A stretch of 64,000 nt of DNA from NCBI GenBank assembly GCA_041662125.1, contig JBAZTA010000001.1, positions 259,118 through 323,117 of the forward strand, given 5' to 3'. Within the stretch, counting starts at the first letter, position 1; each line of letters starts with the position of its first letter. The position numbers and the translations under genes were made by a program. Source of the DNA: Candidatus Omnitrophota bacterium (GTDB lineage Bacteria; Omnitrophota; Gorgyraeia; Gygaellales; Profunditerraquicolaceae). The notes beneath the pieces were generated by a model. It was not told where the DNA came from, did no database searches, and saw only the letters and a list, made by a program, of their open reading frames with translations. Positions 3,538-61,525 of this stretch are shown here, piece after piece.

Positions 3538-4701
3538 ATGGAAGAACTCCCTAAAGTAAAAGAAGAGCTCGAACGCACCAAAAACGAACTCACCATCCTC
3601 TATGAGATCTCCAATGCCATGAGGACCACCCTTAAACTTGATGAGATCCTCTACATCATTGTTACCGGAGTTACCGCGCATATCGGATTAGGTTTCAACC
3701 GGGCGTTGCTTTTCCTCGTCAATGAAAAAGAAAACCTTATCGAAGGAAAAATGGCGATCGGGCCGGAAAGCGGCGAAGAAGCAAACAGTATCTGGAGGTA
3801 TATCGAAGAGGAAAAGATGGATTTAGATGACCTCATCAACGCCTATAAATCAAGCCACCCCGCTCCGGAAACCGGTTTTAACCGTGAAATGAAACAACTC
3901 AGGTTTTCTTTAAATGACCAGAAAGAACGCCTCTTGACCATGGCGGTCCTGGAAGGGATGCCTTTACATCTCACTAAAGAATCTATCCAAAACTATAAAC
4001 AGGACCCTATTATTCAATTATTGAACACAGATGAACTTGTGGTCGTGCCATTACGGGCAAAAGATAAAATAAACGGAATTATCCTTGCTGACAACTGTAT
4101 TACCAAAAAACCTATCACCAAAGATAACCTCAGAATGCTTATTATGCTCTCAAACCAGGCTGGCCTGGCGATTGAAAATTCCCAGCTTTATGAAAAAGCA
4201 GTCATCCGCGCGCACTCTGATTCCCTGACAGAACTTTGGAACCACGGGTACTTCCAGTATCTGCTGGGGGTCGAAGTAGAAAAAGCAAAAGCAACCTCAA
4301 GTGCTTTTAGCCTTATCATGGTCGATATCGATGATTTTAAGATTTATAATGACATGCTCGGGCATCAGGCAGGAGACCTGATCTTAAAAGAATTAGCCTC
4401 CCTGCTTAAGAATCAATCACGAAAAATGGACCATGTCTGCCGTTACGGCGGTGAAGAATTTACCATTATCCTGCCGCAGACAGATAAAAAAGAAGCCTTC
4501 TTTATTGCAGAACGCCTGCGTGAAAATATCGAAAAGTATCCTTTTACCCATCGTGAAAAGCTGCCTAAGAAAAACCTCACCGCCAGTATCGGCCTTGCAA
4601 CATTCCCTGAAAACGGCGAGTCCGCACCTGAAATCCTTGCCTATTCCGATAAAGCCCTCTACGAAGCCAAGAAAAAAGGCAAAAATAACACCTGCGGGTA
4701 G
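3538..4701 (+). CDS. GAF-domain diguanylate cyclase (GGDEF, GGEEF active site with RxxD I-site)
   Basis: N-terminal GAF-like region followed by the RYGGEEF motif, with RKMD five residues upstream. Confidence 0.85.
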   Translation: MEELPKVKEELERTKNELTILYEISNAMRTTLKLDEILYIIVTGVTAHIGLGFNRALLFLVNEKENLIEGKMAIGPESGEEANSIWRYIEEEKMDLDDLINAYKSSHPAPETGFNREMKQLRFSLNDQKERLLTMAVLEGMPLHLTKESIQNYKQDPIIQLLNTDELVVVPLRAKDKINGIILADNCITKKPITKDNLRMLIMLSNQAGLAIENSQLYEKAVIRAHSDSLTELWNHGYFQYLLGVEVEKAKATSSAFSLIMVDIDDFKIYNDMLGHQAGDLILKELASLLKNQSRKMDHVCRYGGEEFTIILPQTDKKEAFFIAERLRENIEKYPFTHREKLPKKNLTASIGLATFPENGESAPEILAYSDKALYEAKKKGKNNTCG

Positions 4702-15481: not shown

Positions 15482-16708
15482 CTACTTAATCTCCGTCCCC
15501 TTGGCCACTACCACAATCCCTGAATCAGTCACATGGAACCTTTTTCTGTCTTCTTCTAAATCATAGCCGATAACCATGCCTTCAGGGATCTTCACATCTT
15601 TATCGATAATGGTCCTTTTGATATTAGCGTACCTGCAGATATGAACACCTTCCAAAAGGATCGAATCATAAACCTGAGCATAACTGTTGACCCTGACATT
15701 CGGAGAAACAATCGTACGCTTGATCTGGCCGCCACTGATAATACTTCCGCTTGAAACCAACGAATCAAGCGCCAAGCCCACCCTGCCGGTAATCTCTTCA
15801 CCGGCAAAAACAGTCTTGGCAGGAGGGAATTGTTCCTGATATGTCCGCACCGGCCACTGGCGGTCATAAAGGTTAAAAACAGGATCAACCTGCACTAAAT
15901 CCATATTAGCTTCAAAATAAGCTTCAATAGTCCCGATATCTCGCCAATACTGAGCCTCTTTCTTATTCTCATCAATAAAATTAAAAGCCGTTACTTTTAA
16001 ACCCTTTTTAACCATCCGAGGCAAAATATCCTTGCCAAAATCATGGGAAGAGGAACTTTTTTTAGCATCTTCATGCAGCTGCTCTTCCAGAATCTTACTC
16101 TTAAAAACATATATCCCCATAGAAGCATAAATTTTATCCGGATGCCCGGGAATAGTCTTAGGCTTAAGCGGCTTTTCATGAAAATCTTTAACATTACCTT
16201 TAAGATCCACTTCCAGTACCCCTAAATGAATAGATTTACTCTTTTCCACTTCAACGACGCCTACGGTCAGGTCGGCATCAGATTCCCGGTGGGCGTCAAT
16301 CATAGTTGAATAATTCATTTTATAGACATGGTCTCCGGAAAGGATCACGACATACTCCGGCCTATCGATCTCAAGGCTGTAGAGATTTTGGTATATCGCA
16401 TCCGCCGTGCCTAAATACCACGTATCGCCCACACGCTGCTGAGCCGGTAACAATTCAATATATTCGCCTAATTCAGACGAAAGGATATTCCAACCTAAAC
16501 GGATGTGGCGCTGAAGAGAAGCTGATTTATACTGGGTGAGGACGTAAATCTTGCGTAACCCGGAGTTAACACAATTGCTTAAGGTAAAATCAATGATCCG
16601 GTAAATCCCGCCAAAAGGCACAGCAGGTTTGGTCCGGTCTTTCGTCAAAGGCCATAAACGCTCGCCCTTACCTCCTGCCATGACAAATGTTAATACCTGT
16701 TGTTTCAT
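15482..16708 (-). CDS. glgC: Glucose-1-phosphate adenylyltransferase
   Basis: N-terminal AGGKGERLWPLT...KPAVPFGG nucleotidyl-transferase motif and a C-terminal left-handed beta-helix. Confidence 0.9.
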   Translation of the reverse strand: MKQQVLTFVMAGGKGERLWPLTKDRTKPAVPFGGIYRIIDFTLSNCVNSGLRKIYVLTQYKSASLQRHIRLGWNILSSELGEYIELLPAQQRVGDTWYLGTADAIYQNLYSLEIDRPEYVVILSGDHVYKMNYSTMIDAHRESDADLTVGVVEVEKSKSIHLGVLEVDLKGNVKDFHEKPLKPKTIPGHPDKIYASMGIYVFKSKILEEQLHEDAKKSSSSHDFGKDILPRMVKKGLKVTAFNFIDENKKEAQYWRDIGTIEAYFEANMDLVQVDPVFNLYDRQWPVRTYQEQFPPAKTVFAGEEITGRVGLALDSLVSSGSIISGGQIKRTIVSPNVRVNSYAQVYDSILLEGVHICRYANIKRTIIDKDVKIPEGMVIGYDLEEDRKRFHVTDSGIVVVAKGTEIK

Positions 16709-18164: not shown

Positions 18165-19187
18165 TTAGGTTTGAGATGTTACCCCTGTCGGTGAAACCAC
18201 AAGGGGTAATTGATGTTGATATTCTTTAGCGAATACTTTTTTAAAATTATCCTCGAAAGATTCTTTACTGTCCGAGACTTGCATTAAAGTAATTACCTTA
18301 GTAATTTGTTTATCAAGATGTGGATTACCTGTATCCACTGTTAAAAACTGAAAGTGACGATAGCGCCTATATCCTTTTTCAGTGACAGGATTACGTTTTC
18401 TCAATTCATCTAAAACTCCTGATGGTAATTGATCATAAATATACTTATTAATAAATTTTCCCACATATTGGGGTTTCTTAACTGTTTCAGCCCTATATTC
18501 CCAACTATGAATTTTATATATTTGTTTAAAAAACTCGTTTGGAAATGTCTTAACCCAAGGACGTAATTCTTCGGCTATATATGCCGCTAAAAGCCTTTGT
18601 AGTTCATTTTTTGCCCGGTCTTCTTGGTACCCAGTTGCTTCATCAACTAGAGCAATTATACCTACCTTAGCCAAACTCCTAACCAATATATCACATGCTA
18701 TTGCGATGTGTTTTTGATTAGGCTTAAGAGCCTTGGCATCTCTAGCTTCTAAGTAAACTTCACAAACCATAGGTAATAATTCTGCTTTAAATCCATAGGC
18801 TCTATTCCCTGTGGGGGTTCTAAAGGGAATAGGCATTGTCGACTGCCGTAAATCGTCTGAAATGAATGGGTTAAGATTATTAGAGGACAAAAAAGGAGGT
18901 AAGCCGTCGACCAGCGCAAAAGAACTTCCGGTGCTACCTCTAGCCTTTCTCGCACGGCCGATAGAAGCCATAAATGTTTCCTGTGTAAGAACCCTTGTTG
19001 TATTATCTAAAACTGCGCAAGCAATTTTTTTATTTCCGATTTGCATTTCCCCCATATGAGTAGCCCTAGGTATGTTAGTTGACCACCTTTTAATAGCGGC
19101 CTCCCTGGCTATTGCTTTTCTTTCTTCATGAGATAACTTAGTTGCCCTCGCCTGACCGCCCCTTGACTGCATTTCATTTTTTTCCAT
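18165..19187 (-). CDS. Phage-associated P63C-like domain protein
   Basis: A core (VGIIALVDEATGYQEDRAKNELQRLLAAYIAEELRPWVKTFPNEFFKQIYKIHSWEY) that I recall matching the P63C family. Basic N-terminal motif GGQARATKLSHEERKAIAREAAIKRW. The region is low-GC. The start is trimmed to MEKNEM, which has an AAGGGAGGG SD. Confidence 0.45.
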   Translation of the reverse strand: MEKNEMQSRGGQARATKLSHEERKAIAREAAIKRWSTNIPRATHMGEMQIGNKKIACAVLDNTTRVLTQETFMASIGRARKARGSTGSSFALVDGLPPFLSSNNLNPFISDDLRQSTMPIPFRTPTGNRAYGFKAELLPMVCEVYLEARDAKALKPNQKHIAIACDILVRSLAKVGIIALVDEATGYQEDRAKNELQRLLAAYIAEELRPWVKTFPNEFFKQIYKIHSWEYRAETVKKPQYVGKFINKYIYDQLPSGVLDELRKRNPVTEKGYRRYRHFQFLTVDTGNPHLDKQITKVITLMQVSDSKESFEDNFKKVFAKEYQHQLPLVVSPTGVTSQT

Positions 19188-19334
19188 AACAGCCCTCCCT
19201 TGGTTAAAATGCTTGCATCTGATATTATCAGCATACTTGCAAGCAAGCATTTTGTCAAGTAAAATTATTCTAAATAATTAAAAAATAGCTTTTAGGGGAA
19301 TTACTAAACCAGCGAGATTTTGCTGCTTTTACAG

Positions 19335-36924: not shown

Positions 36925-39900
36925 TTACAGCTTTGCTAACGCTAACTGGCGGGAATCAAGTATCACCAGTGTTTCCCGAAGCGCAGCAGAACTTTCAGCC
37001 ACATCTTCTTCCTGCAAGCGGCAAATTTCAGCAAGGCAGACGACCAGATCATCTCTTCTCGACTGCAATTCACCTTTTTGAGAACACGCAGCTACCAATT
37101 CCTTAAGGCGTTCTCCCGAAGGCACTATACCGCTGGCAACCATGTTCTTGATCTGGCCAATTTCAACATCAAGGTTGATATTCGCCAATTCTCCCTTACT
37201 TAATAGCGGGAGCTTTAAATTAAGCCCTTCGAAACTTCCCATAGGCTTGGTAATAATATTCATCGTCCGGAAATCAATACCACCTTTTTTTATAGGAGAA
37301 CCTGCTGCCCGAACGTCCTGATTGACCAGAGGAGAAGAACCGCTATTTTCCAATGTCGCTAATAACGCTTGCAGCTCTTTTGCGGCACCACTGAAAGCTC
37401 CCTTAATTGTATCTTTCATTGCGGGATCATCTACGACAATTTGTTCAAATTGCTTTGCCTTAGCTTCTATAGCGCTTTTCAATATCGAAATATCAGCAGC
37501 GCTGAACACCTGCCCAGATATCTTTTCTATTGGTGCTTCCTGGCTGCCTGATTCACGCATTTTCAAATCTCGCAATAAGCTATGGTAAAAAGAATAGAGA
37601 TTGGTCTGACGGTTTAAATACGCATCAGTGACTTGCGAGAACCATTGACCCGCTATTTTCTGCACTGTTGACAAACCACTTAAAACAACGTCTTTATACC
37701 CATCTTTAAGTTCCAATAATTGCTCGCCGATTTCATGCACCTTTTGGCGCACTTTATCAGCACTCGGAATCGTCTTTCCAATAGCTTCCGTATAAAGACG
37801 GACCACAGGCTCTGTCCCGGAGAAACGGATACACAACCATGAACCATCGGTAAAGACTATCTTGTAGCCGTCAGCAAAAATAGATTCGGCTATTTTCTTT
37901 CCCCCAAGCTCTGTTATTGTTTTTGCCTCAAGGTTTTCCTTTAATTCATCCAACTGCGCCTTCAGCTGCGCTTTCAAATCATCAATTTTATCAAGCGATG
38001 TTTTAGCCCTTAAATCAACTCCGCCTCTGTTATACGCAAAGAAGCCGATCTCTGCTTGTAATTTCCCAGCCAACTGCTCGGGAGTAGCTTGAGAAACTGC
38101 ATTGATCTCAACCATCTTAAAGCCGGCGACTAAAGCATCTTTTTCCAATACAACATACTTCGGATCTTTCTCCTGGCTCTTAATATTGAGGCCTTGCGAC
38201 TCCTCACCTGCGATAAGCGCAGGGGTTTTGGAATCAGCCAAGAGGTACTGATTGAACCATTTAAAACCAACCTTGGTCACATACAACGGACAGGACCAAC
38301 GGTCAGCAATAGCCTTCATCATATGAGACGTAGGTATCGTGGTAGCAAGGGCGATATTCTCTTCATTGACGAATTTCTGGATCAAAGGTATAAGCCTTTT
38401 ATAAACAGAATCTTTGTCAATAAAAGAATCCAGGTCGTTGATAGCTACACCGGATTTAGCCAACAAAGCAGCAACATCTTCCCTGCCTTGGTTATTGGTG
38501 AGCCATTGAATAAACCTTTGCTGAATAAGATACTGTGCCTCAATGGCAAAGGTCATATTGGGATCGATAAAATTACCTTCGGCAGACACAACGCCATTTC
38601 TGTCGGCATCGGGATCAGCAGAGATGGCAATCGCCTTTTTCCCTTGCGACCTTAACTCATTAACACGATACACTAAATGCTTTGAATATTCTGCTGCCGG
38701 CTCAGGCCTGTCAGGTTTCGTTACACCTGTTTCAGGGTCCCATTGCGAGAAGCTCGGATCAGGCTCAGCGTTAATGATCTCATACTGTACCCCCTCCTTT
38801 AACCCAATAGCATTCATAATGGCCCGGTAATATTCAGTAGCTGAGCCGTGCTTTGGATCTATAACAACGTAATCGAGCACTCCTTTTTCGAATGCCGTAG
38901 CTATTGCCTTAAAATCAATTATTTCCTGTAATGCCTCGATATAGAGAGGCGCTACTTTGTCCATGCTCATGGCCGTAATATTGCGTCCATGGCGGTTTTG
39001 ATCAAACGGATTATCGTGCTTTGATTCCCGCAATGTATTGATATTCTTCTGCAAAGGCCCGGTGATCTCCTCTTCCGCAGGCCCTGAATGCGCGGGATTA
39101 AACTTCAGGCCATTATTATTGATTTCAACAACCGACCCATCGTCTTTGGTGATCTGATAACCGCGGCCGGGGTTATGAGAAGCGGTAAAATAAAGTGAAC
39201 CCGCTGTCTTAAGCCTGCCGATCAATACCGAAACAACCGGTAAAGGACAATAATGATCGACGAAATAAACTTCAATCCCCAGCGACGCGAGTTTCTCGGC
39301 CGCTAACCTGCTGAGGTCCAAATTGGTATACGGACCGGTTGCACGAGTATCGCCGCTGATAAGTACGCCTTTTCTTCCCGGATTTCCTGCCTCTTGCAGG
39401 CGGATCTGATCAGCAGCAGCAGTTACAGTCGCGTAGAAATCGTTCAAGAACCATTCCTGCATGAACACGCCGTCTTTCATATACTGGCTTTCATCAAAAC
39501 GCCATCCCGAAGTACCGAACTTAATGGGATTCTTCGTGACGAATTCAGAATATGAAGTAATAGACGATGAGCTAAACCGGGGTACTAAAGGCTTATCCCC
39601 ATCATCTTCAGAAGTGATCACTGCTGTGCCCGCTTGCGCTGATGCAACAGAACCACTTAAGAACTTCTGAACCTGCGCAAAGAATTGCTGCATATCACTG
39701 ACAGCTCCATCCGTAGTCGCATCCGCAGTAATAAGAACCGCTTTACGGTTACTCGCAACCAATGCTTTGACCGTGCCGATGGTTTGCGCTTTGATTAGAT
39801 TCTCTGAATATTCAAGAGCGCTCGGCTGATCTACCTGCATAGGCATAAAATAGGTTGATAAGAACATTTCTCTTCCTGCTTCTATGTTTTGATGGAAAGA

Positions 39901-42900
39901 GTGGTTCTTATCAGGGCCTTCGCCTAATTTAGCCGCCATTTTTAAACCATTAGTAAAGATATCATACCGGGCAGCTTCTAATACTTCCCGTAACCCGGCA
40001 GTCATTCTTCCGTAGGACATAAGCTCAAGCGCCTCAAAACCCGGCTTGCTCTTGAGGATAGTAATAATTGCCGCATAAACTGCCGGCGCATTATTGAGAT
40101 CAGCCCCCAACCTCTCCAACTCAGCATTCAACTCTCTTTCACCGATATGATGAGTGGCCAGAAGCGGGCCATAATATACCTTCAAAGTATTAAATTGCGA
40201 ATACTTCCATTCAGCCGGAACAGAAACCTTTTCTCCCGGAGCTACCTTAGCCATTACTTCACGAGTCCCCTTTTTATACCCTTCTACCGCCGGCTGATCA
40301 ACAAAACAGATATCCCACAAATATGCGATCGAGGCCACTGTTCTTTGAAAACCAAGCATTATACCGCCGATAGAATCTTTATCTTCGACATTAATGTCAA
40401 ACAGAGGGTAATTATTATCTTTAAGATAAGCACCCAACTCAGAATTTGTTTCCTCACCCTTAAAGTTTATACGGACAAATACGCGGTCATTGGTATCAGC
40501 CGGCAATAAATTCTCGGAGCTTAACTTCTCCCCGTAAAAAAGCGTCACACCTTTCCCGTCTTTACCCAATGACTCTTCAAATAACTGTTCTGCCCAGATA
40601 GAAATATCCTTCATCTCCTCAGGAACGATCAAGGTCATTTTATCTTTGCGTTCGTTCTTAGCGTAAGAGTAGAGGAATGCGGCAAGTTTAAGGAACATAT
40701 CGCCGTTTTCACCCTGATTCATCTTTTTGGCAGTACTTAAAACCTGCCAGACTTTTTCCGGAGCAACTAACGCCATCGGCAGGAGGAATATATTTGTCGT
40801 CGGTGCGGTAAACCGTCCGCCGATATCTCCTTTTCCATTGAGTTGAATTTCTCTCTGATTATAATCCCCGGTATCCATAGGTGAGCCTTTATCAGTGACA
40901 ACCCACATGTGATCTTTTGCATCTAAACCGGATTGGCCGAAAAGTGTTTCAAAATACCTTTTATGAGAAACTGTTTCTTCGGTAGTCCCGGATTTACTAA
41001 TAGGAATAACCAAAGTCTTAGCAAGAGCATTTTCCAATGAACCTTCTTTAGCGGCTATCTCATTAAGCATATCAGCGATAACTGCAGGATCAGTGGTCCT
41101 GAGGCTGTAAATCTTTACTTCCCGTTCGCCAAAGGTTGTTTTTACTGTTTGCACTGATAATCCTGAACCACCCATGCCGCAAAAGATCACATAGGTATAT
41201 TTATTACGAATTGCCTCGGCGTCTTCTAAAACAGCATTGACTGCTTGAGGATTCTCAAACAACCAGTTCAGATTCATCATACCCCAACCTAAACGGTTTG
41301 CTTTACCGTCAAAACCAATTCTGGCAAAAGTCGGATCTAATTTTATTGCGTCCTCTTGAGACAAACCATAGAGTGAATTTAAGCGTGCTTCGGCTCGTTC
41401 ACGTAACAATTTATCAAAAGATTCTTTGATCACTGTTTCATTTACGATATTCAACGGTGAAGCAGCAGAAACAACACTGCGTGCATCCAAATACGCCTGC
41501 CGAGCTAACGCCGCAGGAACAATGATCAAAGATTTATCCCCATCCTGGTCGTTCGCTAAAGAAGCATCCATAAGCGCATATTTTAATCCTACGACATCTC
41601 CAGCAGTAACAATAAATGTATCATTAACATAGAAGCTTTTTTGCTTGCGAGACAAAGTTTGATGAATATTAACGATCCCTAACCCTGCCTCTTTTGCCCT
41701 GACAATACGGGCATCATTTTCATTAACATCATCGGTGATAACCACTTTCTTTACACCGGCAAGCTTGAGAGCCTCTGCGGTAATATCAGAGGTATATGCT
41801 CCCGGCTTATTAGAAGAAAGCTGATCTATCGATACTGCCAGCTCCATGCCTTTCGGCAGGGACTCTTTGCTCAGATCCAAAAGATCAACCGGATTCTCAC
41901 CTTTTAACGCGCGATCAAAGAGTATCATATCAGTATCGTTAACCGCGAAGAAGATACGGATATCATTTTCCAGGTCAATACCTTGAAGGTTATTATTAAC
42001 GAACACGGCAAAATCCATGAGTTCGCGTAAATACTCTACTTTCATCTTCTCCCCGCCCACTTCAGCTTTCAAATTAAAGCCTAATACCGGGATACGGCCG
42101 GAAAATGTCCCGGCAGCTTTTTGGTTGCGGACAGTTTCAACTATAGTCTTGATCAAAGTTAATGCTGCTTCTTTAGTTAATGAAGCTCCTCCGATAAGCC
42201 CGCCGTCGACATTGACCATCGCCATAAGATCAGCGGCAGTCTTTGCGCTCATACTTCCACCGTATTGAATAATTATTTTATCTGCTTCACCAGGAATGAT
42301 CTGAGAAAGTATCTCATTTCTAATGAACGCCTGCACCTCATCAGCTTCTGATGATTTTGCCGGACGTATGGCTTTCGGGCCGATAGCCCAGATCGGTTCA
42401 TACGCAATGATGGTCATTAAGATCTGCTCTCTGGTAAGGCCGGCTAAACCTTCAGTAACTTGCGCGCGGATAAAATCCCATCCCGCTTTAGTAAGATCAC
42501 CATTGGCATCACGCATGTTTGCCGGTTCTCCCATTGCCAAAACATTGATCGTATTAAAAACATCATGTGATTGAGACAAAAGCGCATTGACTTTATTATT
42601 GTCTAAATTATATGCTTCTCTGGTTTCAGAGTGGCCGGTTAAAGCGCCATCCGCGCCTAACGACCTAAGCAAGACCAAATCCGATTTGTCATTCGCCTGC
42701 ACCATTAAGCGTACAGGACGATATTGGCCGTCTTTCTTGGTCCATTCTCCTTGAAGAGGCGAGCCTGCGGATAGAGACTGGGCTTTGGTAACTTCAAAAT
42801 GCTCCTTCGCAGATAGATAGACCGCATTCATGATCGCGTCTTCTGTCTTCTGATCAAGCATGTTCATCAGTTCCTGGTCATATCCCCTGACTTTCTTATC

Positions 42901-45300
42901 CCAGACTTTCTTTTCCTTTGTATCACTTAAATCTGTCAACCCTAAAAATACCTTTGCTTCTTCTGTGATCGTAGGCTGTAGTTTCGTAACCACATCCCAT
43001 ACTATATTCTGCCAATGCGTACCAATATTCCCGTTCCTAATTCCAACTCCCGCTAACACCGGGAACAATTCCTTGGCTGTACCCGTGATCCCATGCTGAT
43101 TGATCCGGATCCCCCATCTCTGATATATCGCGTCATTGATCGCTTTCGTCCGGTCCAAATCTATCTTCATCCCGGGAACATTACCATGCTCAGACCCATT
43201 ATTAATTGCCATTAATACAGGTAATGAATTTATTCCCTGTCTTTCAATCCCTTCCAAAAACGCAATCGCTTCGGCTACCGTAGAGAGTGCATTATGGGTT
43301 CCAACTATTTCCCCGATCTCACCTTCCCACGCGCTCTTCTCTATCCCTGTCCGCTTCACGATCTCCGCGGTTACCTCATAGTTCCTTCTCTGCTGTTCTG
43401 TTTCTGTCGCTTTCGTAAAATCTACCAGCTTTGAACAGTCTATCGCATATGAACCGAACCCTGCTTCCTTTGCCATCTCCACGAACATCACCACATGGTT
43501 GATCGCTTCAGGAGTATCCTTGCTCACCGTCGCATGATCCAATTTCAACATCCAGCTCCCCGTAAACCCTTCTTGCTGCGCCGCTATATTGGCATCCCAC
43601 GCTAAATCCGCAGGTAAATAATTGTCCACAAATTCCGAAATAGACCTCTGTATAATTACCGGCGCTCCTGTTTCCTTCGCCGCGCGGAATATACCACGCA
43701 ATGCCACCGGGTTCCTCATGTTCACGCTCAATACTATTACATCCCCCTGCTTCTCTATCTCTTTATAAAACTCTCGGCTCTTCTCTATTCCTATAGGTGC
43801 CGAAAAACTCCTTGTTGCAATAGGTGAACCGGATGCGCGGGAATTCAATACCAAAAGGCTTGATTCCAAAGCTTGCGCAATTTGAGCAGGCATTAACGCG
43901 TCTTTCTTTAAAATATATGTACCTTTTGAGCTATCTTTATAAACTAAGGAAACGGTAAAAGGATAATCTCCCTGCTCTTTCACATGAAAACCAGAATAAA
44001 CCCTGCCAGTTTCATCAGTTAACCCCTTTATTTCAACGCTTGCATGCAGATTTCTATACTTACTATTTGCGGCTTTGATCCTCTGGCCTATAATTAAAGC
44101 ATTTTGTTCATAGACATTTTGGGAAACAACAGGAGAACCTGAAGATTTCTTTCCTTTGCCTTTTTGAGCTACAAACATTTCTCCGGTTAAAGGCAAAGTA
44201 TCTACAGAAACTAACCCTCCTTTACCAGCCATGATTCCCGGCATATCTAATACGCCGCCGTATTTATTGACCGCTATTCTCGAAAAATCTTCACCGCCGC
44301 TAAAATAGCTCCTGATCACCTGTCCCGAAGGAGTACGCACCGGCACCTTAATATCATATTCTCCTTCTTTAAAAGATTTCTGATATGCTTTAAAATAGGT
44401 ATTTTTTGACCAATTCTCTTTGGAAGTCAAACCTGTTAACTCATTTTTATCTATAAGCGCGGGATATTGCCCTGCTTTACCTGCGAATTGAGATTTAAAC
44501 CAGCGGGATAATACCAGCGAATAAAAAACCTGGCGAAGAGAGGCGTAACGCTTTGCCGTATTGATCTCTTTAGTAAGTTTAGGAATAATCAACTCACGGA
44601 TAATTTCAGAAGAATACTCATTTAACGCCTTCATGCGGGCATCTTTAAAATTATACATCGAGGAATCTTTCAGGTAATCCTGTTCCAGCATGACTTTCAT
44701 CGTGGCTTTATAGATGTAGGCGCTATCACCGCTTTCTCTGATGATAATTTCATTAGGCACTATCCAGGGACGGGTCAAAGTTGGGATAGAAACATTTTCA
44801 GTGCCGAATAATGCTTCGGCTTTCTTATATAATTTATCCCAGTACAATTTCCCTTCAGTAGTTTCCGGAGAAGTAAACTTTGCGGTATCTTTCTTAAGTT
44901 GCAGGTCAGCTTCTAACATGATCTTGCCGACATCAGTCATACCCAGCTTATTATCGATAACCTCATTCTCAGAGTCCGGCCTTAAATTAACCCAGAAAGT
45001 ATCATTGGTAAGAGTTACTCCAATAAGAAAATAATTTAATAACGTGCGGGTCGATGCTTCAAGTTCTGAAGACCCAAGATTCTTGACATCGCCACGATCC
45101 AAAAGGACCTTAAGATTATCGCCTGTGGAGTCGTAAGAGAAATACCGTAGATGGACAGGACGGAATTTGTCCCCGACGAAATTGCTGTGTACTTGAGAAA
45201 GGTAATTGCCCAGCTTTAATTCTGCGGCAACCTGAGCAAAACTTACTTGTTGAAATAAAAGTCCAAAACTCAGCACCAAAGAAACAATCTTACGCACCAT
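36925..45300 (-). CDS. Giant secreted multi-domain protein: signal peptide, unknown N-domain, class II fructose-bisphosphate aldolase, triosephosphate isomerase, degenerate TPI-like repeat, glucose-6-phosphate isomerase, phosphoglucomutase, unknown C-tail
   Basis: Uninterrupted 8376 nt ORF. Signal peptide MVRKIVSLVLSFGLLFQQVSFA/QV. FBA motifs KLDHAT, EHGN, INQHG and GIRNGNIGTHWQ. TPI motifs GHSETRE, AYEPIWAIG, YGGSM and GGASL. TPI-like segment GAYTSDITAEALKLAGVKKVVITDD. PGI motifs GMGGSG, ISKSGTTEET, GGRFT and FVDQPAVEGYK. PGM motifs FGTSGWR, TASHNP, DPDADR, GEESQG and RFSGTEPVVRLY. Confidence 0.8.
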   Translation of the reverse strand: MVRKIVSLVLSFGLLFQQVSFAQVAAELKLGNYLSQVHSNFVGDKFRPVHLRYFSYDSTGDNLKVLLDRGDVKNLGSSELEASTRTLLNYFLIGVTLTNDTFWVNLRPDSENEVIDNKLGMTDVGKIMLEADLQLKKDTAKFTSPETTEGKLYWDKLYKKAEALFGTENVSIPTLTRPWIVPNEIIIRESGDSAYIYKATMKVMLEQDYLKDSSMYNFKDARMKALNEYSSEIIRELIIPKLTKEINTAKRYASLRQVFYSLVLSRWFKSQFAGKAGQYPALIDKNELTGLTSKENWSKNTYFKAYQKSFKEGEYDIKVPVRTPSGQVIRSYFSGGEDFSRIAVNKYGGVLDMPGIMAGKGGLVSVDTLPLTGEMFVAQKGKGKKSSGSPVVSQNVYEQNALIIGQRIKAANSKYRNLHASVEIKGLTDETGRVYSGFHVKEQGDYPFTVSLVYKDSSKGTYILKKDALMPAQIAQALESSLLVLNSRASGSPIATRSFSAPIGIEKSREFYKEIEKQGDVIVLSVNMRNPVALRGIFRAAKETGAPVIIQRSISEFVDNYLPADLAWDANIAAQQEGFTGSWMLKLDHATVSKDTPEAINHVVMFVEMAKEAGFGSYAIDCSKLVDFTKATETEQQRRNYEVTAEIVKRTGIEKSAWEGEIGEIVGTHNALSTVAEAIAFLEGIERQGINSLPVLMAINNGSEHGNVPGMKIDLDRTKAINDAIYQRWGIRINQHGITGTAKELFPVLAGVGIRNGNIGTHWQNIVWDVVTKLQPTITEEAKVFLGLTDLSDTKEKKVWDKKVRGYDQELMNMLDQKTEDAIMNAVYLSAKEHFEVTKAQSLSAGSPLQGEWTKKDGQYRPVRLMVQANDKSDLVLLRSLGADGALTGHSETREAYNLDNNKVNALLSQSHDVFNTINVLAMGEPANMRDANGDLTKAGWDFIRAQVTEGLAGLTREQILMTIIAYEPIWAIGPKAIRPAKSSEADEVQAFIRNEILSQIIPGEADKIIIQYGGSMSAKTAADLMAMVNVDGGLIGGASLTKEAALTLIKTIVETVRNQKAAGTFSGRIPVLGFNLKAEVGGEKMKVEYLRELMDFAVFVNNNLQGIDLENDIRIFFAVNDTDMILFDRALKGENPVDLLDLSKESLPKGMELAVSIDQLSSNKPGAYTSDITAEALKLAGVKKVVITDDVNENDARIVRAKEAGLGIVNIHQTLSRKQKSFYVNDTFIVTAGDVVGLKYALMDASLANDQDGDKSLIIVPAALARQAYLDARSVVSAASPLNIVNETVIKESFDKLLRERAEARLNSLYGLSQEDAIKLDPTFARIGFDGKANRLGWGMMNLNWLFENPQAVNAVLEDAEAIRNKYTYVIFCGMGGSGLSVQTVKTTFGEREVKIYSLRTTDPAVIADMLNEIAAKEGSLENALAKTLVIPISKSGTTEETVSHKRYFETLFGQSGLDAKDHMWVVTDKGSPMDTGDYNQREIQLNGKGDIGGRFTAPTTNIFLLPMALVAPEKVWQVLSTAKKMNQGENGDMFLKLAAFLYSYAKNERKDKMTLIVPEEMKDISIWAEQLFEESLGKDGKGVTLFYGEKLSSENLLPADTNDRVFVRINFKGEETNSELGAYLKDNNYPLFDINVEDKDSIGGIMLGFQRTVASIAYLWDICFVDQPAVEGYKKGTREVMAKVAPGEKVSVPAEWKYSQFNTLKVYYGPLLATHHIGERELNAELERLGADLNNAPAVYAAIITILKSKPGFEALELMSYGRMTAGLREVLEAARYDIFTNGLKMAAKLGEGPDKNHSFHQNIEAGREMFLSTYFMPMQVDQPSALEYSENLIKAQTIGTVKALVASNRKAVLITADATTDGAVSDMQQFFAQVQKFLSGSVASAQAGTAVITSEDDGDKPLVPRFSSSSITSYSEFVTKNPIKFGTSGWRFDESQYMKDGVFMQEWFLNDFYATVTAAADQIRLQEAGNPGRKGVLISGDTRATGPYTNLDLSRLAAEKLASLGIEVYFVDHYCPLPVVSVLIGRLKTAGSLYFTASHNPGRGYQITKDDGSVVEINNNGLKFNPAHSGPAEEEITGPLQKNINTLRESKHDNPFDQNRHGRNITAMSMDKVAPLYIEALQEIIDFKAIATAFEKGVLDYVVIDPKHGSATEYYRAIMNAIGLKEGVQYEIINAEPDPSFSQWDPETGVTKPDRPEPAAEYSKHLVYRVNELRSQGKKAIAISADPDADRNGVVSAEGNFIDPNMTFAIEAQYLIQQRFIQWLTNNQGREDVAALLAKSGVAINDLDSFIDKDSVYKRLIPLIQKFVNEENIALATTIPTSHMMKAIADRWSCPLYVTKVGFKWFNQYLLADSKTPALIAGEESQGLNIKSQEKDPKYVVLEKDALVAGFKMVEINAVSQATPEQLAGKLQAEIGFFAYNRGGVDLRAKTSLDKIDDLKAQLKAQLDELKENLEAKTITELGGKKIAESIFADGYKIVFTDGSWLCIRFSGTEPVVRLYTEAIGKTIPSADKVRQKVHEIGEQLLELKDGYKDVVLSGLSTVQKIAGQWFSQVTDAYLNRQTNLYSFYHSLLRDLKMRESGSQEAPIEKISGQVFSAADISILKSAIEAKAKQFEQIVVDDPAMKDTIKGAFSGAAKELQALLATLENSGSSPLVNQDVRAAGSPIKKGGIDFRTMNIITKPMGSFEGLNLKLPLLSKGELANINLDVEIGQIKNMVASGIVPSGERLKELVAACSQKGELQSRRDDLVVCLAEICRLQEEDVAESSAALRETLVILDSRQLALAKL

Positions 45301-45717
45301 TGCCTACACTCCTTTTAATAAGGTTTCGAAAAGTTTTTATTATTATAATAAAAAAAATCCGGTCGACCCTGTTTCTATCAATCCGGATAATACACGTGGC
45401 ACCCTCGATTACCTCCATAATCAAGGGACTCCAGAAAACGCTTTCAAAACTTACTTGTAATAGTTTGCCATTTTTCCTAAATCTTGTCAAGTAAAATTAT
45501 ATTTTTTTTCAGCGAGCTTGAAATCTTACCATCCTTATGGCATATTTATTTTGTAGGAAGAACATATTAAGGATCTTTTAACAGGAGGTCGTTTGGATAG
45601 CGAAAGCTACCAGGCCTATCCCCTACGGACTCGCGCCGGGTGTTGTCGGCGCTTTTCTGTTTTATATGGCCATTTAAAGATAGGCCTTTTCAATATAACC
45701 ACTTACCATTAAATGAG

Positions 45718-47222: not shown

Positions 47223-48695
47223 TTATAAGATTAATCGCGCGTTTTTCTTTAACGGGTGGCTTTGGATATCCGCCACGATCTCTTCAGAGATTCCCGGTTT
47301 ACCCAGCTTATAATACATATAATTTTTATACCCCTCGACTCCCGGCTGGTCAAAGGCGTTGACATTCAACAACTCTCCCTCAAAAGCAGTCGCCATTTCA
47401 AAGAAAAACAAAAGCGCTCCCCAATGATATGCGGATACTTCAGGCATAATGATCGCGCAATTCGGCCGTGATTCCCTGACCAGCGCCCAGGCCGTTGCCT
47501 CCTGCGCTAATGCCATCAATTCAGAAAGCTTTTTCCCCGACAAAATATCCCCTTTTACCGCAATCGTCATGTCACGCTTAAATTTCTCTGTCCGGATAAA
47601 GGTGACCACCTTATCATGCTCGCCTTCAATATTGTTCTGCTGAATAGAATGTAAATCATTGGTTCCCCGGCAGGACACCGGCGTTCTGCCGACATTAACG
47701 ACCTGGCCTTTATCGCGCAGCCAATCTTCCGACCCATCAGCTGCTGTCACGATCTTTCTGGCGAATTTCTTCCCTAAGCTTTCTGCCAACAATTGCACAT
47801 ACCAGTCAGCAGTAGACTTGAGCGTCTCAGAAAAAGGCATCATAACCGCCAGTGACTTTCCTTTTTTACGGTAAAGGATAGCATGCAGCAAAGCGTACAT
47901 ATACGCGGGATTCTTATAGACATCTTTATTACTACAGCGTTTTTCCATCGCTTTCATCCCATCAAAGACTTTTTGGATATCAACGCCAATAATAGCCAAA
48001 TGCAAGAGCCCCATATTAAATTCTGAAAACCTACCTCCGACTCCCGGCAATAACGGCAGATTCCTGAAACTCAAAGGGTCTTTCTTTTGTTCTTCGGTAA
48101 TTTTCTTGCGTAAACTTCCTGATTGCGGATCGGTAACCGCTACGATCTGCCTGCCATAGTTTTTCCCCACCGCTTTCTTAAGCCACTGTTCTACGATCAT
48201 AAACGCAGCCTTTGTTTCAGCGGTCTCCCCCGATTTTGATATCACCACCACAAACGTTTTCTTTGGGTTGAGATTCTTTAAAAGCACTGATAACGTGTCC
48301 GGATCAAGGTTATTTCCTTCGAAATAAATACGGGGGCGCTTATTGCGAACAGGGCTGAATTCATTATAATACGGGGCGCATAAGGCATCCTGAGCAGCTT
48401 TGACCCCCAAATATGAACCGCCGATACCTAATGAAATGATACAATCATACTTCTTAACGATCTGGGCGCTTATTTTCTTAATACCGTTGATCACCTCTTT
48501 ATCCTGATACTGCAATTGCGTCCATTCCAGGCCGAACTTTACCCGCATCCCTTTATCGGCAATAACCTTTTGCAAATGCTGGGCTGCCGCATTGATATCC
48601 TGATCCATGGCAGCAATATCGTTTTCTGTTACACCGTGCGTTTCGGTAACATTGGCACTAAACATATTATTAAAATCAAACCTGATTTCTTCCAT
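47223..48695 (-). CDS. pgi: Glucose-6-phosphate isomerase (canonical cytoplasmic copy)
   Basis: Motifs SLGIGGSYLG, ISKSGETAET, GVGGRFS and FDQPGVEGYK. The start is trimmed to MEEIRFDF. The full ORF runs to 48764. Confidence 0.85.
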   Translation of the reverse strand: MEEIRFDFNNMFSANVTETHGVTENDIAAMDQDINAAAQHLQKVIADKGMRVKFGLEWTQLQYQDKEVINGIKKISAQIVKKYDCIISLGIGGSYLGVKAAQDALCAPYYNEFSPVRNKRPRIYFEGNNLDPDTLSVLLKNLNPKKTFVVVISKSGETAETKAAFMIVEQWLKKAVGKNYGRQIVAVTDPQSGSLRKKITEEQKKDPLSFRNLPLLPGVGGRFSEFNMGLLHLAIIGVDIQKVFDGMKAMEKRCSNKDVYKNPAYMYALLHAILYRKKGKSLAVMMPFSETLKSTADWYVQLLAESLGKKFARKIVTAADGSEDWLRDKGQVVNVGRTPVSCRGTNDLHSIQQNNIEGEHDKVVTFIRTEKFKRDMTIAVKGDILSGKKLSELMALAQEATAWALVRESRPNCAIIMPEVSAYHWGALLFFFEMATAFEGELLNVNAFDQPGVEGYKNYMYYKLGKPGISEEIVADIQSHPLKKNARLIL

Positions 48696-48729
48696 CACAA
48701 GCTCCCTTTTTTCATTATTATGAGACAGC

Positions 48730-48957
48730 CTATTTCTTGAGGAATTTATCGCTGAAACTGTCAATCTGTTTCTGCAGGCTCATCAGGCTTTCTTCAAGGC
48801 GCTGATTTGAGCGAATGATCCCGAGGTTAGAATTAACGATATCCTGATTGTTTTGGTTACTTAAAACCAAACGGCTTTCCAGAATATTTAATTTTAGTAA
48901 TACCATGACTAAAACCAGGGCGATTATGGCTTGCAGGATAACATTCACGAATTTCAT
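48730..48957 (-). CDS. Small hypothetical membrane protein
   Basis: 75 aa with one N-terminal TM helix and a coiled-coil-like C-terminal tail. Confidence 0.35.
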   Translation of the reverse strand: MKFVNVILQAIIALVLVMVLLKLNILESRLVLSNQNNQDIVNSNLGIIRSNQRLEESLMSLQKQIDSFSDKFLKK

Positions 48958-49501: not shown

Positions 49502-50257
49502 CTACATAAGGTTATCCATCGCATCAGCATTTTTACCCGTTATCCCCAACAAATCCGGGACTGTCACGAAGTGATACCCTCTTGCCTCAAGAGCAATGAT
49601 GATTTTTGAAAGAGCATCAATAGTCGGCTGACAGCTATTGCGCTGCTTGAGCCTTCTACCATCATGCAAAATAATAATAGAGCCGTTCCTGACATTACCA
49701 ATAATCCTCTTGGCGATGGTCCCGGCTTTTTTTGACTCCCAATCGAAGCCGCTGACTGACCATTTAATAATAGTATAGCCGTGCTTTCCGGCTTCCTTGA
49801 ACACCCAGGCATTTTCGATCCCATACGGAGGCCTAAACAAAAACAATTCCTGGCCGCAATACTTTCTTACGGCTTCTTCGGTATTCCTGATTTGTTTACG
49901 TATCATCACAGGCTCTTCCATAAACATATCGGGGTGTGAATAGGAATGATTCCCTATCGCATGGCCATCATTAATAATACGGGTAAATATCTCAGGATAC
50001 TTTTCCACATTCTTGCCAATCACAAAAAAAGTCGCCTTAACATTATATTTTTTCAGTTCCTGAAGTATCTGCAATGTATCTTTACTCGGCCCATCATCAA
50101 ACGTAAGAGCGATTTTGCGCGCAGTCGTTACCCCATGCCAATAGACTCTCCCCTTTTTATCGACTTTTTGATGCAAATCTCCCTGAGCCAAAGGGCAATA
50201 TCCCGACAGAGATAAAAACAGGCAAATCACAACGCTTATTACTATTTTATTTTTCAT
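49502..50257 (-). CDS. Polysaccharide deacetylase (NodB homology domain), secreted
   Basis: LTFDDGPS and HSYSHP motifs. The start is trimmed to MKNKIVISVV, which has a signal peptide. The full ORF runs to 50335. Confidence 0.8.
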   Translation of the reverse strand: MKNKIVISVVICLFLSLSGYCPLAQGDLHQKVDKKGRVYWHGVTTARKIALTFDDGPSKDTLQILQELKKYNVKATFFVIGKNVEKYPEIFTRIINDGHAIGNHSYSHPDMFMEEPVMIRKQIRNTEEAVRKYCGQELFLFRPPYGIENAWVFKEAGKHGYTIIKWSVSGFDWESKKAGTIAKRIIGNVRNGSIIILHDGRRLKQRNSCQPTIDALSKIIIALEARGYHFVTVPDLLGITGKNADAMDNLM

Positions 50258-50365
50258 TACTTCTCTGTTAATCTCCCTTAAAAAACCACCCGGTAAAGTC
50301 GCTGCTTCAGTCCGGCCCCAAGAAAATATGGACAAAAAAAGGAAAAAAGAGTATGCTATTTTCTG

Positions 50366-51002: not shown

Positions 51003-51479
51003 TTACTCAAGGATAAATTCGTTTGACTTCGCCGTATTCCAAACTATTCCGTTGAGGCTATTATTCTTTTTGACTCCAAATATAATGGTTAATCGATACG
51101 TACCAGGCGCCGGGACAGGAGAAAGTTTTTTCATATAAATAGACGGTTTCCAAAGAAAACTCAAAACCTCTCCAGCAGCGATTTCTTTTAGTTCTAAAAC
51201 ATCATCCTTACATCCCAACCCGCGGCAGCGTGTCGGGAATGCATCCCAGGTCAACGCGGTCCGTTTTTTTTCAAAGTTTGAAATAGCAAACTCCGGAGTA
51301 GCTGTTGCAGCCGCTGAAAGAATACCGGTTTTGCGTTCATTAGCGATACTTACCTTTATTTTCTCTTTGCGCGCATAAGCAGTCTTATCAGTTGTCACGA
51401 GTACCTCTTGAGCATAAACACTCCTCAAGAAAATAATACTTATCACAATGAGAAAAAACGAGCCCCTAGGTTTTATCAT
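51003..51479 (-). CDS. Hypothetical secreted protein
   Basis: Signal-peptide-like N-terminus (MIKPRGSFFLIVISIIFLRSVYAQE). No recognisable domain. Confidence 0.4.
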   Translation of the reverse strand: MIKPRGSFFLIVISIIFLRSVYAQEVLVTTDKTAYARKEKIKVSIANERKTGILSAAATATPEFAISNFEKKRTALTWDAFPTRCRGLGCKDDVLELKEIAAGEVLSFLWKPSIYMKKLSPVPAPGTYRLTIIFGVKKNNSLNGIVWNTAKSNEFILE

Positions 51480-51822
51480 TGGATGAAACGCCCTTTTGAA
51501 CCCCATCGATAATCCGTTGAATTATTGTCCCATCAACCTTGGTGAATTCAACACCAATGCGAAACAACTGCTTACCGTCTTTTTCTAAGGCGAGAGAATA
51601 TTTGATCTTCCCAATCCCGATCAGGGACTTTTCAAGGAACTTATTTATCAGGATAAAATCGGCTTCCGCTCCAACCGGCAGGTTTTCTTGCGCGTACGCT
51701 CCAACACCTAAAGCACAAATATCCACTAACTCCCCCCGGATAGTACGGGACATATCGCTCTTCAACTTAATAATTATCTGCCCTTCAACCGTATACCGTC
51801 TGTATTTACGCTGTTCTTCCAT
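51466..51822 (-). CDS. Single-domain PilZ protein
   Basis: RKYRRYTVEG followed by LVDICALGVGA. Confidence 0.7.
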   Translation of the reverse strand: MEEQRKYRRYTVEGQIIIKLKSDMSRTIRGELVDICALGVGAYAQENLPVGAEADFILINKFLEKSLIGIGKIKYSLALEKDGKQLFRIGVEFTKVDGTIIQRIIDGVQKGVSSNDKT

Positions 51823-55267: not shown

Positions 55268-55801
55268 TTAAAAGCGGGTTTTGAAAACGTAAGTAAATCC
55301 ACCTTTGCTGAATTCAGGCTTACCTTTAAGCTTAAACACTCTTACACTACATTTATCTTTAACCCACGCCTCAACTTCTTTCGCTTTATAATACGGGGAC
55401 CAAATATCGATCCCAAATACCTTTGCCCACTCTTGGCGTATCATCTTTTCTTCGCTTACCTTTGGCGTATTATAGAACGAGCGAAATGCCTGACGGCTGG
55501 CGGCGATAGTGTCGCTGCGTCCTTGCTCCAAGTATTCTCTCGGCAACAATTGAAATTGCGGCCACTGCACAGGCTTATCCATGAAATCATCGGAGTTATC
55601 ATAGAGATGCTCAAGGATTTTTTCTCGAGGCTCTATAACATTATTTTTCATTATGATGATTTTCTCAAGAGCTACGATATTCTCTCTTGATAAGAAGCCA
55701 TACGGGATTTTTGGGTTAACAAAAGCATCCTGAGCAGCAAGAGGCACAGTGAGATACCCAATTAAACATACTAAGACTACTACTCTGATAATCAAATGCA
55801 T
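55268..55801 (-). CDS. Hypothetical secreted protein
   Basis: Start MHLIIRVVVLVCLIGYLTVPLAAQDA (signal peptide) with a GGAGGG SD. Confidence 0.45.
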   Translation of the reverse strand: MHLIIRVVVLVCLIGYLTVPLAAQDAFVNPKIPYGFLSRENIVALEKIIIMKNNVIEPREKILEHLYDNSDDFMDKPVQWPQFQLLPREYLEQGRSDTIAASRQAFRSFYNTPKVSEEKMIRQEWAKVFGIDIWSPYYKAKEVEAWVKDKCSVRVFKLKGKPEFSKGGFTYVFKTRF

Positions 55802-56069
55802 CGCGCCCTCCGGAAACAAAAAAACCTATTCTCAAAAGAATAGGTTTGCAAAATGCGGTGTTTACTTCGGCAACCCAGCTGCCTTTCTTTAGATCAAGTG
55901 AAGGCCTGTGGCTTTGCGTCCTACCCTTTCGGGAAGTTTGCCTTTTCGTTCATTTTATGACATAACTTCTTAGTTTCTAAACAGTTTACTCCTAATTAAA
56001 ATATAACATATAATCGAACATATTACCATGTCGCTTGGCAAGTAAATTAATAGATACGAGTCTTCACCT

Positions 56070-58159: not shown

Positions 58160-61525
<3,366 letters not shown>

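Follow-up and report, generated by a model that had tools for sequence, protein, structure and literature searches.

What does a bacterium do with several enzymes of sugar-phosphate metabolism on one very long polypeptide that starts with an export signal? The question is raised by a gene in a 64,000-nucleotide stretch of a metagenome-assembled genome (MAG) of Candidatus Omnitrophota (contig JBAZTA010000001.1, positions 259,118 to 323,117), which we call the window and to which all coordinates refer. A first-pass annotation of this DNA had read the gene as a single-chain fusion of fructose-bisphosphate aldolase (FBA), triosephosphate isomerase (TPI), a second TPI-like piece, glucose-6-phosphate isomerase (PGI) and phosphoglucomutase (PGM), and matches in Pfam, in NCBIfam and among solved structures confirm this fusion; all sequence motifs that had been quoted are present, and the domain positions given there were approximately correct, apart from those amended below. 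Judged by its sequence, the gene is one member of a very large, essentially Omnitrophota-restricted family that we name 'framed enzyme strings': a signal peptide and an N-terminal module (N-module) of ~310 amino acids are followed by interchangeable enzyme cassettes with linkers and, at the end, by a C-terminal module (C-module) of ~125 amino acids.

The fusion gene is real and conserved

The uninterrupted open reading frame (ORF) of 2791 codons stands as annotated (Table 1). Its product is identical to the NCBI protein MFA6216286.1, encoded on a MAG contig of 646 kb from Candidatus Omnitrophota; the public names of the fusion protein are 'triose-phosphate isomerase' (NCBI) and 'phosphomannomutase/triosephosphate isomerase/glucose-6-phosphate ...' (JGI). 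A ribosome-binding site can be read directly in front of the start codon, and a promoter and terminator scan gave nothing above chance.

An orthologue of 2798 amino acids (P0344) is encoded on a 70.9-kb contig of a separate JGI metagenome and is 90% identical over its full length. The two contigs share the gene order PGI, Dus, PCC-domain protein, giant gene, RecG, RsmD, CoaD, YceD, L32, PlsX, FabH, FabD and FabG. Enzyme domains and frame modules are 89-95% identical between the two proteins, linkers and tail 75-86%, and every one of the catalytic motifs is unchanged. The ratio of non-synonymous to synonymous substitution rates (dN/dS) was computed against the near-orthologue L002, for which DNA was at hand (the P0344 contig was compared as protein); the N-module has a ratio of 0.057, and the small domain together with the aldolase one of 0.15. 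These values and the retention of the motifs indicate that purifying selection acts on the fusion gene.

Contigs of related MAGs often end within such genes (L001 and L002 are examples), as might be the case if separate genes had been joined by chimeric assembly or by a frame-shift artefact. However, an independent contig from another sample has the same protein of 2.8 thousand amino acids (kaa) in the same synteny, which excludes assembly chimerism, and the ORF opens with the N-module of the family and closes with its C-module, which also argues against a chimera. The likelihood of an artefact is negligible: the fusion gene is real and conserved.

A family of framed enzyme strings

Among the best 119 homologues, ~116-119 share the N- and C-modules of the fusion protein despite unrelated cargo; the shared regions are amino acids 1 to ~340 (50-70% identity) and the last ~125-150 amino acids (~30-50% identity). 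The fusion protein itself has all parts that define the family: the N-module (~1-340), the C-terminal GGIDF with its helical module and the SSP junction motifs described below. A profile search with the N-module returned 7,707 clusters (representatives at 50% identity) with a cutoff of E<=0.001, of which 6,381 reach E<=1e-30. Among the best 150 matches, proteins of 453-6,439 amino acids, the N-module is N-terminal without exception (residues ~1-345, with an offset of at most ~60 in one protein). In species-representative genomes 435 family loci were confirmed; nearly all of the 79 listed loci are labelled Omnitrophota or Omnitrophica, with several loci per MAG, and these loci include 50 complete genes (609-3,679 amino acids) with an N-module at the start and a C-module at the end. 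The frame motifs occur once per protein. At one locus (L032; SCRK01000074.1, 238-15907) two N-modules and three C-modules lie within 16 kb, indicating that family genes can be arranged in tandem. The architecture had been thought unprecedented; in fact it is one of thousands of framed strings, the protein is already in public databases, and giant proteins of this kind were noted in two preprints (see below).

The cargo of the homologues includes PGK, GAPDH, enolase, iPGM, PPDK/PEP synthase, FBP aldolase/phosphatase, GlpX FBPase, transaldolase, transketolase and cupin-type PGI, but also guanylate and adenylate kinases, NUDIX, HD, ROK and FGGY kinases, methyltransferases, HEAT/TPR repeats and more. 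When 40 N-module proteins were picked regardless of cargo, PGI, PGK, GAPDH, transaldolase, guanylate kinase, phosphoesterases, FHA, HEAT and TPR were found, and many proteins had no Pfam domain. The cargo domains are long-branch and fast-evolving, and neighbouring pathway steps are repeatedly co-fused (PGI-PGM, FBA-TPI, GAPDH-PGK-enolase, TAL-PGI-PGM). The PGI cassette is found at differing positions of the chain in 9 other aligned family members (P0344 aside), with 47-62% identity, and L002 has an extra ROK kinase cassette between N-module and aldolase: thus, cargo moves as cassettes.

The fusion had also been described as a nucleotide-free enzyme set that lacks only a nucleotide-dependent phosphofructokinase/fructose-bisphosphatase (FBPase) step. 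The cassettes of this member indeed need no nucleotides, but the rule fails across its relatives: the near-orthologue has the ROK kinase, and paralogues have PGK, GAPDH and PPDK. Moreover, FBPase does not depend on nucleotides, and it is present in relatives (P0010).

The region in front of the aldolase, previously taken for one N-terminal domain of ~460 amino acids, consists of the signal peptide (1-22), the N-module (23-336) with a linker and a small domain (387-490). Likewise, only the last ~126 amino acids of what had been called a 280-residue C-terminal tail are a conserved module; the remainder (2521-2665) is the least conserved part of the protein (74.5% identity to the orthologue). The AlphaFold2 model of the N-module, built with 28 homologues, has a pLDDT of 83.6 and a pTM of 0.78, with an alpha+beta domain starting near residue 47. 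The C-module has an invariant GGIDF and then a helical bundle with a conserved 'PSGERIKE..AAC'; its model has a pLDDT of 83.8, rising above 95 in the bundle of four to five helices after GGIDF. Relatives of the two modules were found neither by profile searches of Pfam, NCBIfam and PDB sequences nor among PDB folds. The N-module is unlikely to be a Cys, His or metal protease, as it has no invariant His or Cys.

One member, P0221 (537 amino acids), is free of cargo and consists of N-module, linker and C-module. The end of the N-module, ...YFSGG(I/E)D(F), resembles the opening GGIDF of the C-module (amino acids 330-340 and 2666-2680 of the fusion protein). These two features hint that N- and C-module may once have formed one contiguous protein, into which the cargo was then inserted.

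Across the family, the cassette linkers carry the motif (A/S)(S/G)SP(V/I/L). In 120 family proteins, [SAG][SGA]SP[LIVM] occurs 347 times, versus 11.6 occurrences expected from shuffles (~30-fold enrichment). In the fusion protein it is at amino acids 387, 490, 845, 1279, 2654 and 2666, all of them cassette boundaries, and among the long ORFs of the window the motif is found only in the fusion gene (6/6 occurrences). The motif might serve for cleavage by a protease, for O-glycosylation or as a hinge.

The window neighbours of the fusion gene are ordinary housekeeping genes. No immunity genes and no mobile-element context were seen around it or at the family loci, and around the 79 listed loci no neighbour gene for secretion, anchoring or proteolysis is conserved beyond local synteny groups.

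Predicted export signal and cysteine content

The predicted Sec-type signal peptide of the first-pass annotation is supported: the pattern of n-, h- and c-region is present throughout the family, nearly invariant as 'LFQQxGFA/Q' (the slash marks the predicted cleavage site). As expected for a substrate of Sec and signal peptidase I, the n-region is charged, the h-region has ~12 residues, the c-region is polar and small residues occupy positions -3 and -1. In the AlphaFold2 model the signal peptide is a detached N-terminal helix, followed by a disordered stretch. Positive charges are found before the h-region and none after it, so the C-terminal bulk of the protein is predicted to be translocated; a further trans-membrane-like segment was not seen in the fusion protein. 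Other signal types were considered and rejected: a Tat signal, because a twin-arginine consensus is missing and RK takes the place of RR in most members; a lipoprotein signal, because there is no lipobox Cys; and a type IV pilin-like leader, because the hydrophobic stretch is before G-F, not after it.

Two more ORFs of the window look exported, 49502-50335 (-) and 51003-51506 (-), with signal peptides ending in ...PLA/QG and ...VYA/QE; the site is of the same A/Q type as in the family signal ...GFA/Q. In the source organism, Gln directly behind the predicted cleavage site (position +1) may be the rule; a Gln at this position has been described for Bacteroidetes.

Family proteins contain 0.34% cysteine (223 proteins, 419,393 residues), a ~4-fold depletion: 27 housekeeping proteins encoded in the window contain 1.25% and canonical TPIs 1.58%, and in PGI the content is 0.32% for the fused versus 0.97% for the stand-alone enzyme. 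Exported bacterial proteins typically avoid cysteine. The depletion is therefore independent compositional support for an extracytoplasmic fate, which had been proposed from the N-terminus and stays a prediction. The GAPDH cassettes have kept the catalytic Cys in SC(T/S)TN in 8/8 members examined, and in P0050 it is the sole Cys in 1,826 residues. That the essential Cys alone is retained argues for active enzymes, and the combination of low cysteine content with a preserved catalytic Cys fits active enzymes outside the cytoplasm.

Aldolase, PGI and phosphohexomutase cassettes

The catalytic signatures had been described as intact in all enzymes. This holds for FBA, PGI and PGM, with motifs kept in the orthologue and in distant members, and fails for the first TPI segment, which has no Asn/Lys loop (see next section). 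The Pfam matches for FBA, TIM and all four PGM_PMM domains are above the gathering score, as the Pfam scan suggested with the annotation had anticipated; PGI is recognised by NCBIfam instead.

The aldolase matches F_bP_aldolase (PF01116) with 81.8 bits (cutoff 25.5) over amino acids 517-777 and profile positions 11-247 of 277. LKLDH, SEHGN, NQHG and RNGNIG match the motifs of 3pm6 in an alignment and are identical in the orthologue; presumably, LDH provides the catalytic Asp-His, two more His are Zn ligands, and an Asn binds the substrate. We could not confirm that the aldolase belongs to the E. coli FbaA type; among solved sequences, a class II aldolase comes closest, with an E-value of 6e-4.

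For the PGI cassette, Pfam PGI (PF00342) gives no match in the fusion protein at E<=0.01. The PGI half of the bifunctional transaldolase/PGI model PRK09533 (NCBIfam) aligns with amino acids 1335-1874 (E 5.9e-45, below the whole-protein cutoff), and a sequence search matches solved PGI structures at E 6e-11. The cassette contains GMGGSG, SKSGTTEET, GGRFT, EESLGK, QPAVEGYK and GPDKNHSFHQN, and 10 family members have preserved the SIS phosphate-binding motifs as well as the motifs with the catalytic Arg, Glu, His and Lys. The supposed linker of ~200 amino acids behind PGI is part of the domain, given that the NCBIfam alignment extends to amino acid 1874 and GPDKNH..QN is at ~1795-1805. The Lys motif QPAVEGYK (~1668-1675) precedes the His motif GPDKNHSFHQN (~1795-1805); this His-after-Lys order is kept in the 10 members, and the transaldolase/PGI model aligns in one stretch.

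A second, stand-alone PGI gene lies upstream of the fusion gene and also upstream of the P0344 gene, so the fused PGI is an extra copy. Its His and Lys motifs have the opposite order, and there is no significant BLAST similarity between the two PGIs (best tblastn match 37.5% over 32 amino acids, E 0.66).

In the last cassette, PGM_PMM I-IV (PF02878, PF02879, PF02880, PF00408) cover amino acids 1927-2506, and PGM structures in the PDB match with an E-value of 2e-20. Its loops are canonical: TASHNP (phosphoserine), DPDADR (metal), GEESQG (sugar) and RFSGTEP (phosphate). The enzyme is probably phosphoglucomutase-like, with glucose, mannose or glucosamine phosphates as possible substrates. The window also has a GlgC-like ADP-glucose pyrophosphorylase at 15482-16708 (-), indicating cytoplasmic use of glucose-1-phosphate by the cell; should there be no PGM besides the exported one, the question arises which PGM supplies this glucose-1-phosphate.

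A rearranged triosephosphate isomerase

Pfam TIM (PF00121) matches amino acids 877-1052 with 127.5 bits, covering only profile positions 78-244. This first TPI segment carries GHSETRE (with His95), AYEPIWAIG (with Glu165), YGGSM and GGASL, and phosphate loops 6-8 are present; both Pfam and a hidden Markov model of canonical TPIs show that it lacks the first ~80 residues, including the beta1 loop with the catalytic Asn10 and Lys12. A complete (beta/alpha)8 barrel in canonical order is absent from the cassette. The second segment, annotated as a TPI-like half at amino acids 1100-1330, is at ~1063-1279. It opens with GFNLK, which resembles GNWK, and the part that contains PGAYTSDITAEALKLAGVKKVVI matches TPI positions 52-92 (E 1.8e-5); solved TPIs match weakly, and His95 is replaced. 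Both segments are equally conserved between the orthologues (88.9% each).

Thus, the missing N-terminal part of the TPI apparently sits downstream, in a permuted order. P0040 has the same order of C-terminal before N-terminal part (positions 81-248, then 2-54), and seven other family members have a normal TPI (2-248). The simplest reading would be a circular permutation by duplication and partial loss, which makes the cassette a candidate for a natural circular permutation of the TIM barrel. A homologue search with the first segment returned only ordinary TPIs of ~250 amino acids (36-44% identity); it missed the query's own protein and is therefore uninformative on stand-alone Omnitrophota TPIs and on the origin of the cassette.

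The sub-domains of iPGM in P0040, a protein of locus L032, also have an unusual order: Metalloenzyme (2378-2708), then iPGM_N (2820-2936).

Table 1. Parts of the fusion gene and its stand-alone PGI neighbour, with window positions
Feature	Amino acids	Position	Strand	Remarks
Whole ORF		36925..45300	-	2791 codons + stop, no interruption
Ribosome-binding site AAGGAG		45309..45314	-	8 nt 5' of ATG, read directly
Signal peptide, Sec-type (predicted)	1-22	45235..45300	-	n-region MVRK, h-region IVSLVLSFGLLF, c-region QQVSFA, then Q23
N-module of family frame	23-336	44293..45234	-	alpha+beta; ends ...RSYFSGG
Variable linker, Gly/Lys-rich	337-386	44143..44292	-	ends just before first SGSPV (starts at 387)
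Small domain (~100 amino acids)	387-490	43831..44142	-	SSP motifs at bounds; shared with few relatives
Class II fructose-bisphosphate aldolase cassette	491-845	42766..43830	-	PF01116; LKLDH, SEHGN, NQHG, RNGNIG
TPI segment 1	846-1062	42115..42765	-	TPI positions ~81-248; Pfam TIM
TPI segment 2	1063-1279	41464..42114	-	divergent N-terminal TPI part; GFNLK and PGAYTSDITAEALKLAGVKKVVI
Glucose-6-phosphate isomerase cassette, transaldolase/PGI type	1280-1900	39601..41463	-	NCBIfam PRK09533 and solved PGIs
Alpha-D-phosphohexomutase cassette (phosphoglucomutase-like)	1901-2520	37741..39600	-	Pfam PGM_PMM I-IV
Variable tail/linker	2521-2665	37306..37740	-	SGSSPL junction motif at 2654
C-module of family frame	2666-2791	36928..37305	-	starts with AAGSPI; GGIDF, then helical bundle
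Stand-alone glucose-6-phosphate isomerase (513 amino acids)		47223..48764	-	Pfam PGI, E 1.7e-27; 1.9 kb upstream of the fusion

Comparison with known proteins

TPI, PGI, FBPase, PGM/PMM and FBP aldolase domains have been reported in predicted extracellular regions of giant Omnitrophota proteins, the 'Archaeovorins' (West-Roberts et al. 2023, bioRxiv 10.1101/2023.11.21.568195), and a 2026 preprint (bioRxiv 10.64898/2026.06.07.730766) describes 'multi-enzyme metabolic clusters' among proteins of at least 10 kaa, whose metabolic content it concludes to be outward-facing. The fusion protein resembles these giants: it is from Omnitrophota, has a signal peptide and a chain that is mostly predicted to be extracytoplasmic, and combines many 'cytoplasmic' enzymes with divergent, fast-evolving domains on one polypeptide; in particular, its sugar-phosphate domains lie in a predicted extracellular region, as in Archaeovorins. 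In contrast, the giants have at least 10,000 to more than 30,000 amino acids, many trans-membrane helices, glycosyltransferases and peptidases, while the fusion protein has 2,791 amino acids and, after its signal peptide, none of these features. It falls short of the Archaeovorin length (more than ~30,000 amino acids, with many trans-membrane helices), and Pfam finds none of the Archaeovorin glycosyltransferase, methyltransferase, peptidase and NUDIX domains in it, some of which are present in other members of the framed family. The longest N-module protein among the best 150 matches has 6,439 amino acids. The N/C frame, the junction motif, the mid-size family and the cysteine pattern are not mentioned in West-Roberts et al. 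2023, the 2026 preprint or Seymour et al. 2023, and literature searches found no description of them. Thus, the phenomenon is already known for the giants, and in the literature searched we found no description of the framed family or of its FBA-TPI-PGI-PGM member. With 0.5-4 kaa versus 40-150 kaa, the family offers a compact and tractable entry into the puzzle of giant Omnitrophota proteins.

More distant parallels exist. Dockerin-tagged enzymes of cellulosomes and SLH-anchored enzymes likewise have a small conserved module on many exported enzymes, a modular structure and Ser/Pro/Ala-rich linkers; such a shared module implies a common docking or anchoring partner. Unlike these, the fusion protein has no dockerin, cohesin or SLH domain (Pfam), no partner that could act as scaffold was recognised, and the framed family has modules at both ends and a cargo for phosphosugars rather than for polysaccharide hydrolysis. 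Known glycolytic fusions, such as TPI-PGK of Thermotoga, transaldolase-PGI (PRK09533) and TPI/PTS-IIB (PRK14905), also combine neighbouring sugar-phosphate steps on one chain, but these are cytoplasmic two-domain enzymes with no signal peptide, while here an export signal is followed by a frame with four to five cassettes. Polyvalent proteins of phages and conjugative elements and polymorphic toxins are long polypeptides with many enzymatic modules, cassette shuffling and a conserved trafficking end combined with variable content. Unlike in these, the cargo of the fusion protein consists of housekeeping-type metabolic enzymes rather than toxins or anti-defence proteins, and both ends are conserved.

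Possible functions

The reading that we favour, and to which we give about an even chance, is that the protein is exported by Sec and that its sugar-phosphate enzymes, linked as a set, act outside the cytoplasm, with N- and C-modules that serve a function common to the family. The chain would be exported through Sec and its signal peptide cut after Ala22; as tethered neighbours, the enzymes would act outside the cytoplasm (in the periplasm, in a cell coat or at the contact with prey). They would interconvert glucose-1-phosphate, glucose-6-phosphate and fructose-6-phosphate, split or form fructose-1,6-bisphosphate and equilibrate dihydroxyacetone phosphate with glyceraldehyde-3-phosphate, and the shared modules would supply a common need, be it anchoring, assembly or the handling of export. 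What we infer from sequence is that the protein is in fact exported and cleaved, that its enzymes are active, where they act, and what the frame modules and the linker motif do.

Several points weigh against such a function. Phosphosugars are normally not available outside cells. Relatives have ATP- or NAD-dependent cassettes (the ROK kinase in L002; PGK, GAPDH, PPDK and guanylate kinase in others), for which there is no obvious cofactor supply in the periplasm or outside. No secretion or anchoring gene is consistently adjacent at the 79 family loci, the rearranged TPI may or may not form a closed barrel, and the role of the frame modules is a guess, since they match nothing known. The main difficulty of the export reading is the supply of cofactors and substrates, and it keeps three other explanations alive; the same doubt about localisation was raised by West-Roberts et al. 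(10.1101/2023.11.21.568195).

The string could instead be held at the membrane by an uncleaved N-terminal anchor and, as a metabolon on the cytoplasmic face, channel substrates through the glycolysis or gluconeogenesis of the cell itself. The family cargo would suit this: its enzymes, which often depend on ATP or NAD, and its signalling domains are typical of the cytoplasm, and consecutive pathway steps are fused. Published reconstructions report glycolysis genes in all Omnitrophota genomes, some of which may be fused genes. However, the charges precede the h-region and none follow, predicting translocation of the C-terminal bulk, the h-region of only ~12 residues ends in a classic small-x-small site, cysteine is depleted ~4-fold relative to housekeeping proteins of the same genome, and a stand-alone PGI is encoded next door; a cytoplasmic metabolon thus appears rather unlikely. 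Another explanation, compatible with export, is a polyprotein precursor that is cut, exported or not, at the (A/S)SSP(V/I/L) junctions into separate enzymes. It would account for a motif that is ~30-fold enriched and present at every cassette junction, and West-Roberts et al. (10.1101/2023.11.21.568195) have proposed that giant Omnitrophota proteins are cleaved by embedded peptidases. Yet Pfam finds no peptidase domain in the fusion protein, the N-module has no invariant His or Cys, the motif may equally be an O-glycosylation site or a hinge, and the conserved co-fusion of neighbouring pathway steps suggests that linkage matters. We consider processing of this kind unlikely.

The exported string might also be delivered into or onto lysed prey or host cells, redirecting their carbohydrate metabolism for the benefit of the Omnitrophota. 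Prey would offer ATP, NAD and phosphosugars to a protein family that has an export signal and yet, in relatives of the fusion protein, cofactor-dependent cargo. Cultivated or enriched relatives are epibiotic predators (Velamenicoccus), predator RNA was seen inside dead prey cells, and the long branches and fast evolution of the cargo domains would be in line with such a role. The lifestyle is that of relatives, however, and would have to be shared by the source MAG; translocation machinery is not linked to the family genes (79 loci), housekeeping-type enzymes are unusual as effectors, and protein transfer itself is conjecture, which makes delivery quite improbable. Finally, the enzyme folds could have decayed into a non-catalytic, moonlighting surface scaffold or adhesin. 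The cargo is very divergent from canonical enzymes (FBA has an E-value of 6e-4 to the nearest solved sequence) and giant Omnitrophota proteins have been proposed to be adhesins, but all cassettes retain their catalytic and ligand-binding motifs, also in other family members, the GAPDH catalytic Cys is kept in otherwise Cys-free proteins, and purifying selection is strong; there is very little to be said for a decayed scaffold.

Beyond this one protein, it is conceivable, though doubtful, that Omnitrophota export much of their central-metabolism set (glycolysis, gluconeogenesis, pentose-phosphate pathway, nucleotide kinases) as framed strings, either as effectors for prey or host or as an extracytoplasmic compartment or coat; the N- and C-modules would then be the handles of a new targeting or assembly system and the SSP motif its site of processing or modification. 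If the framed enzymes do act outside the cytoplasm, the phylum would deploy central metabolism at the cell surface or in prey in a way not explained before, and Omnitrophota reconstructions that count these enzymes as cytoplasmic glycolysis may have to be reconsidered.

Other features of the window

The 23S rRNA gene (58162-61525) has 3,364 nucleotides versus 2,925 positions of the model. Within it, at 58575-58880 (-), there is a full-length but sub-threshold match to a group I intron (27.8 bits, E 2.5e-4); Velamenicoccus archaeovorus, an Omnitrophota predator, is reported to have an intron of this group in its 23S gene (PMC13153191). An ORF with a phage-associated P63C domain (18165-19250, minus strand) is in the stretch of lowest GC content (18-20 kb; 35.8% versus ~44%), and this region may be a small foreign insertion. 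A c-di-GMP-I riboswitch (55866-55952, minus strand; 81 bits) is found just upstream of an ORF of 183 amino acids without Pfam match (55268-55819), and the window also encodes GGDEF and PilZ proteins (3538-4701 and 8208-9557).

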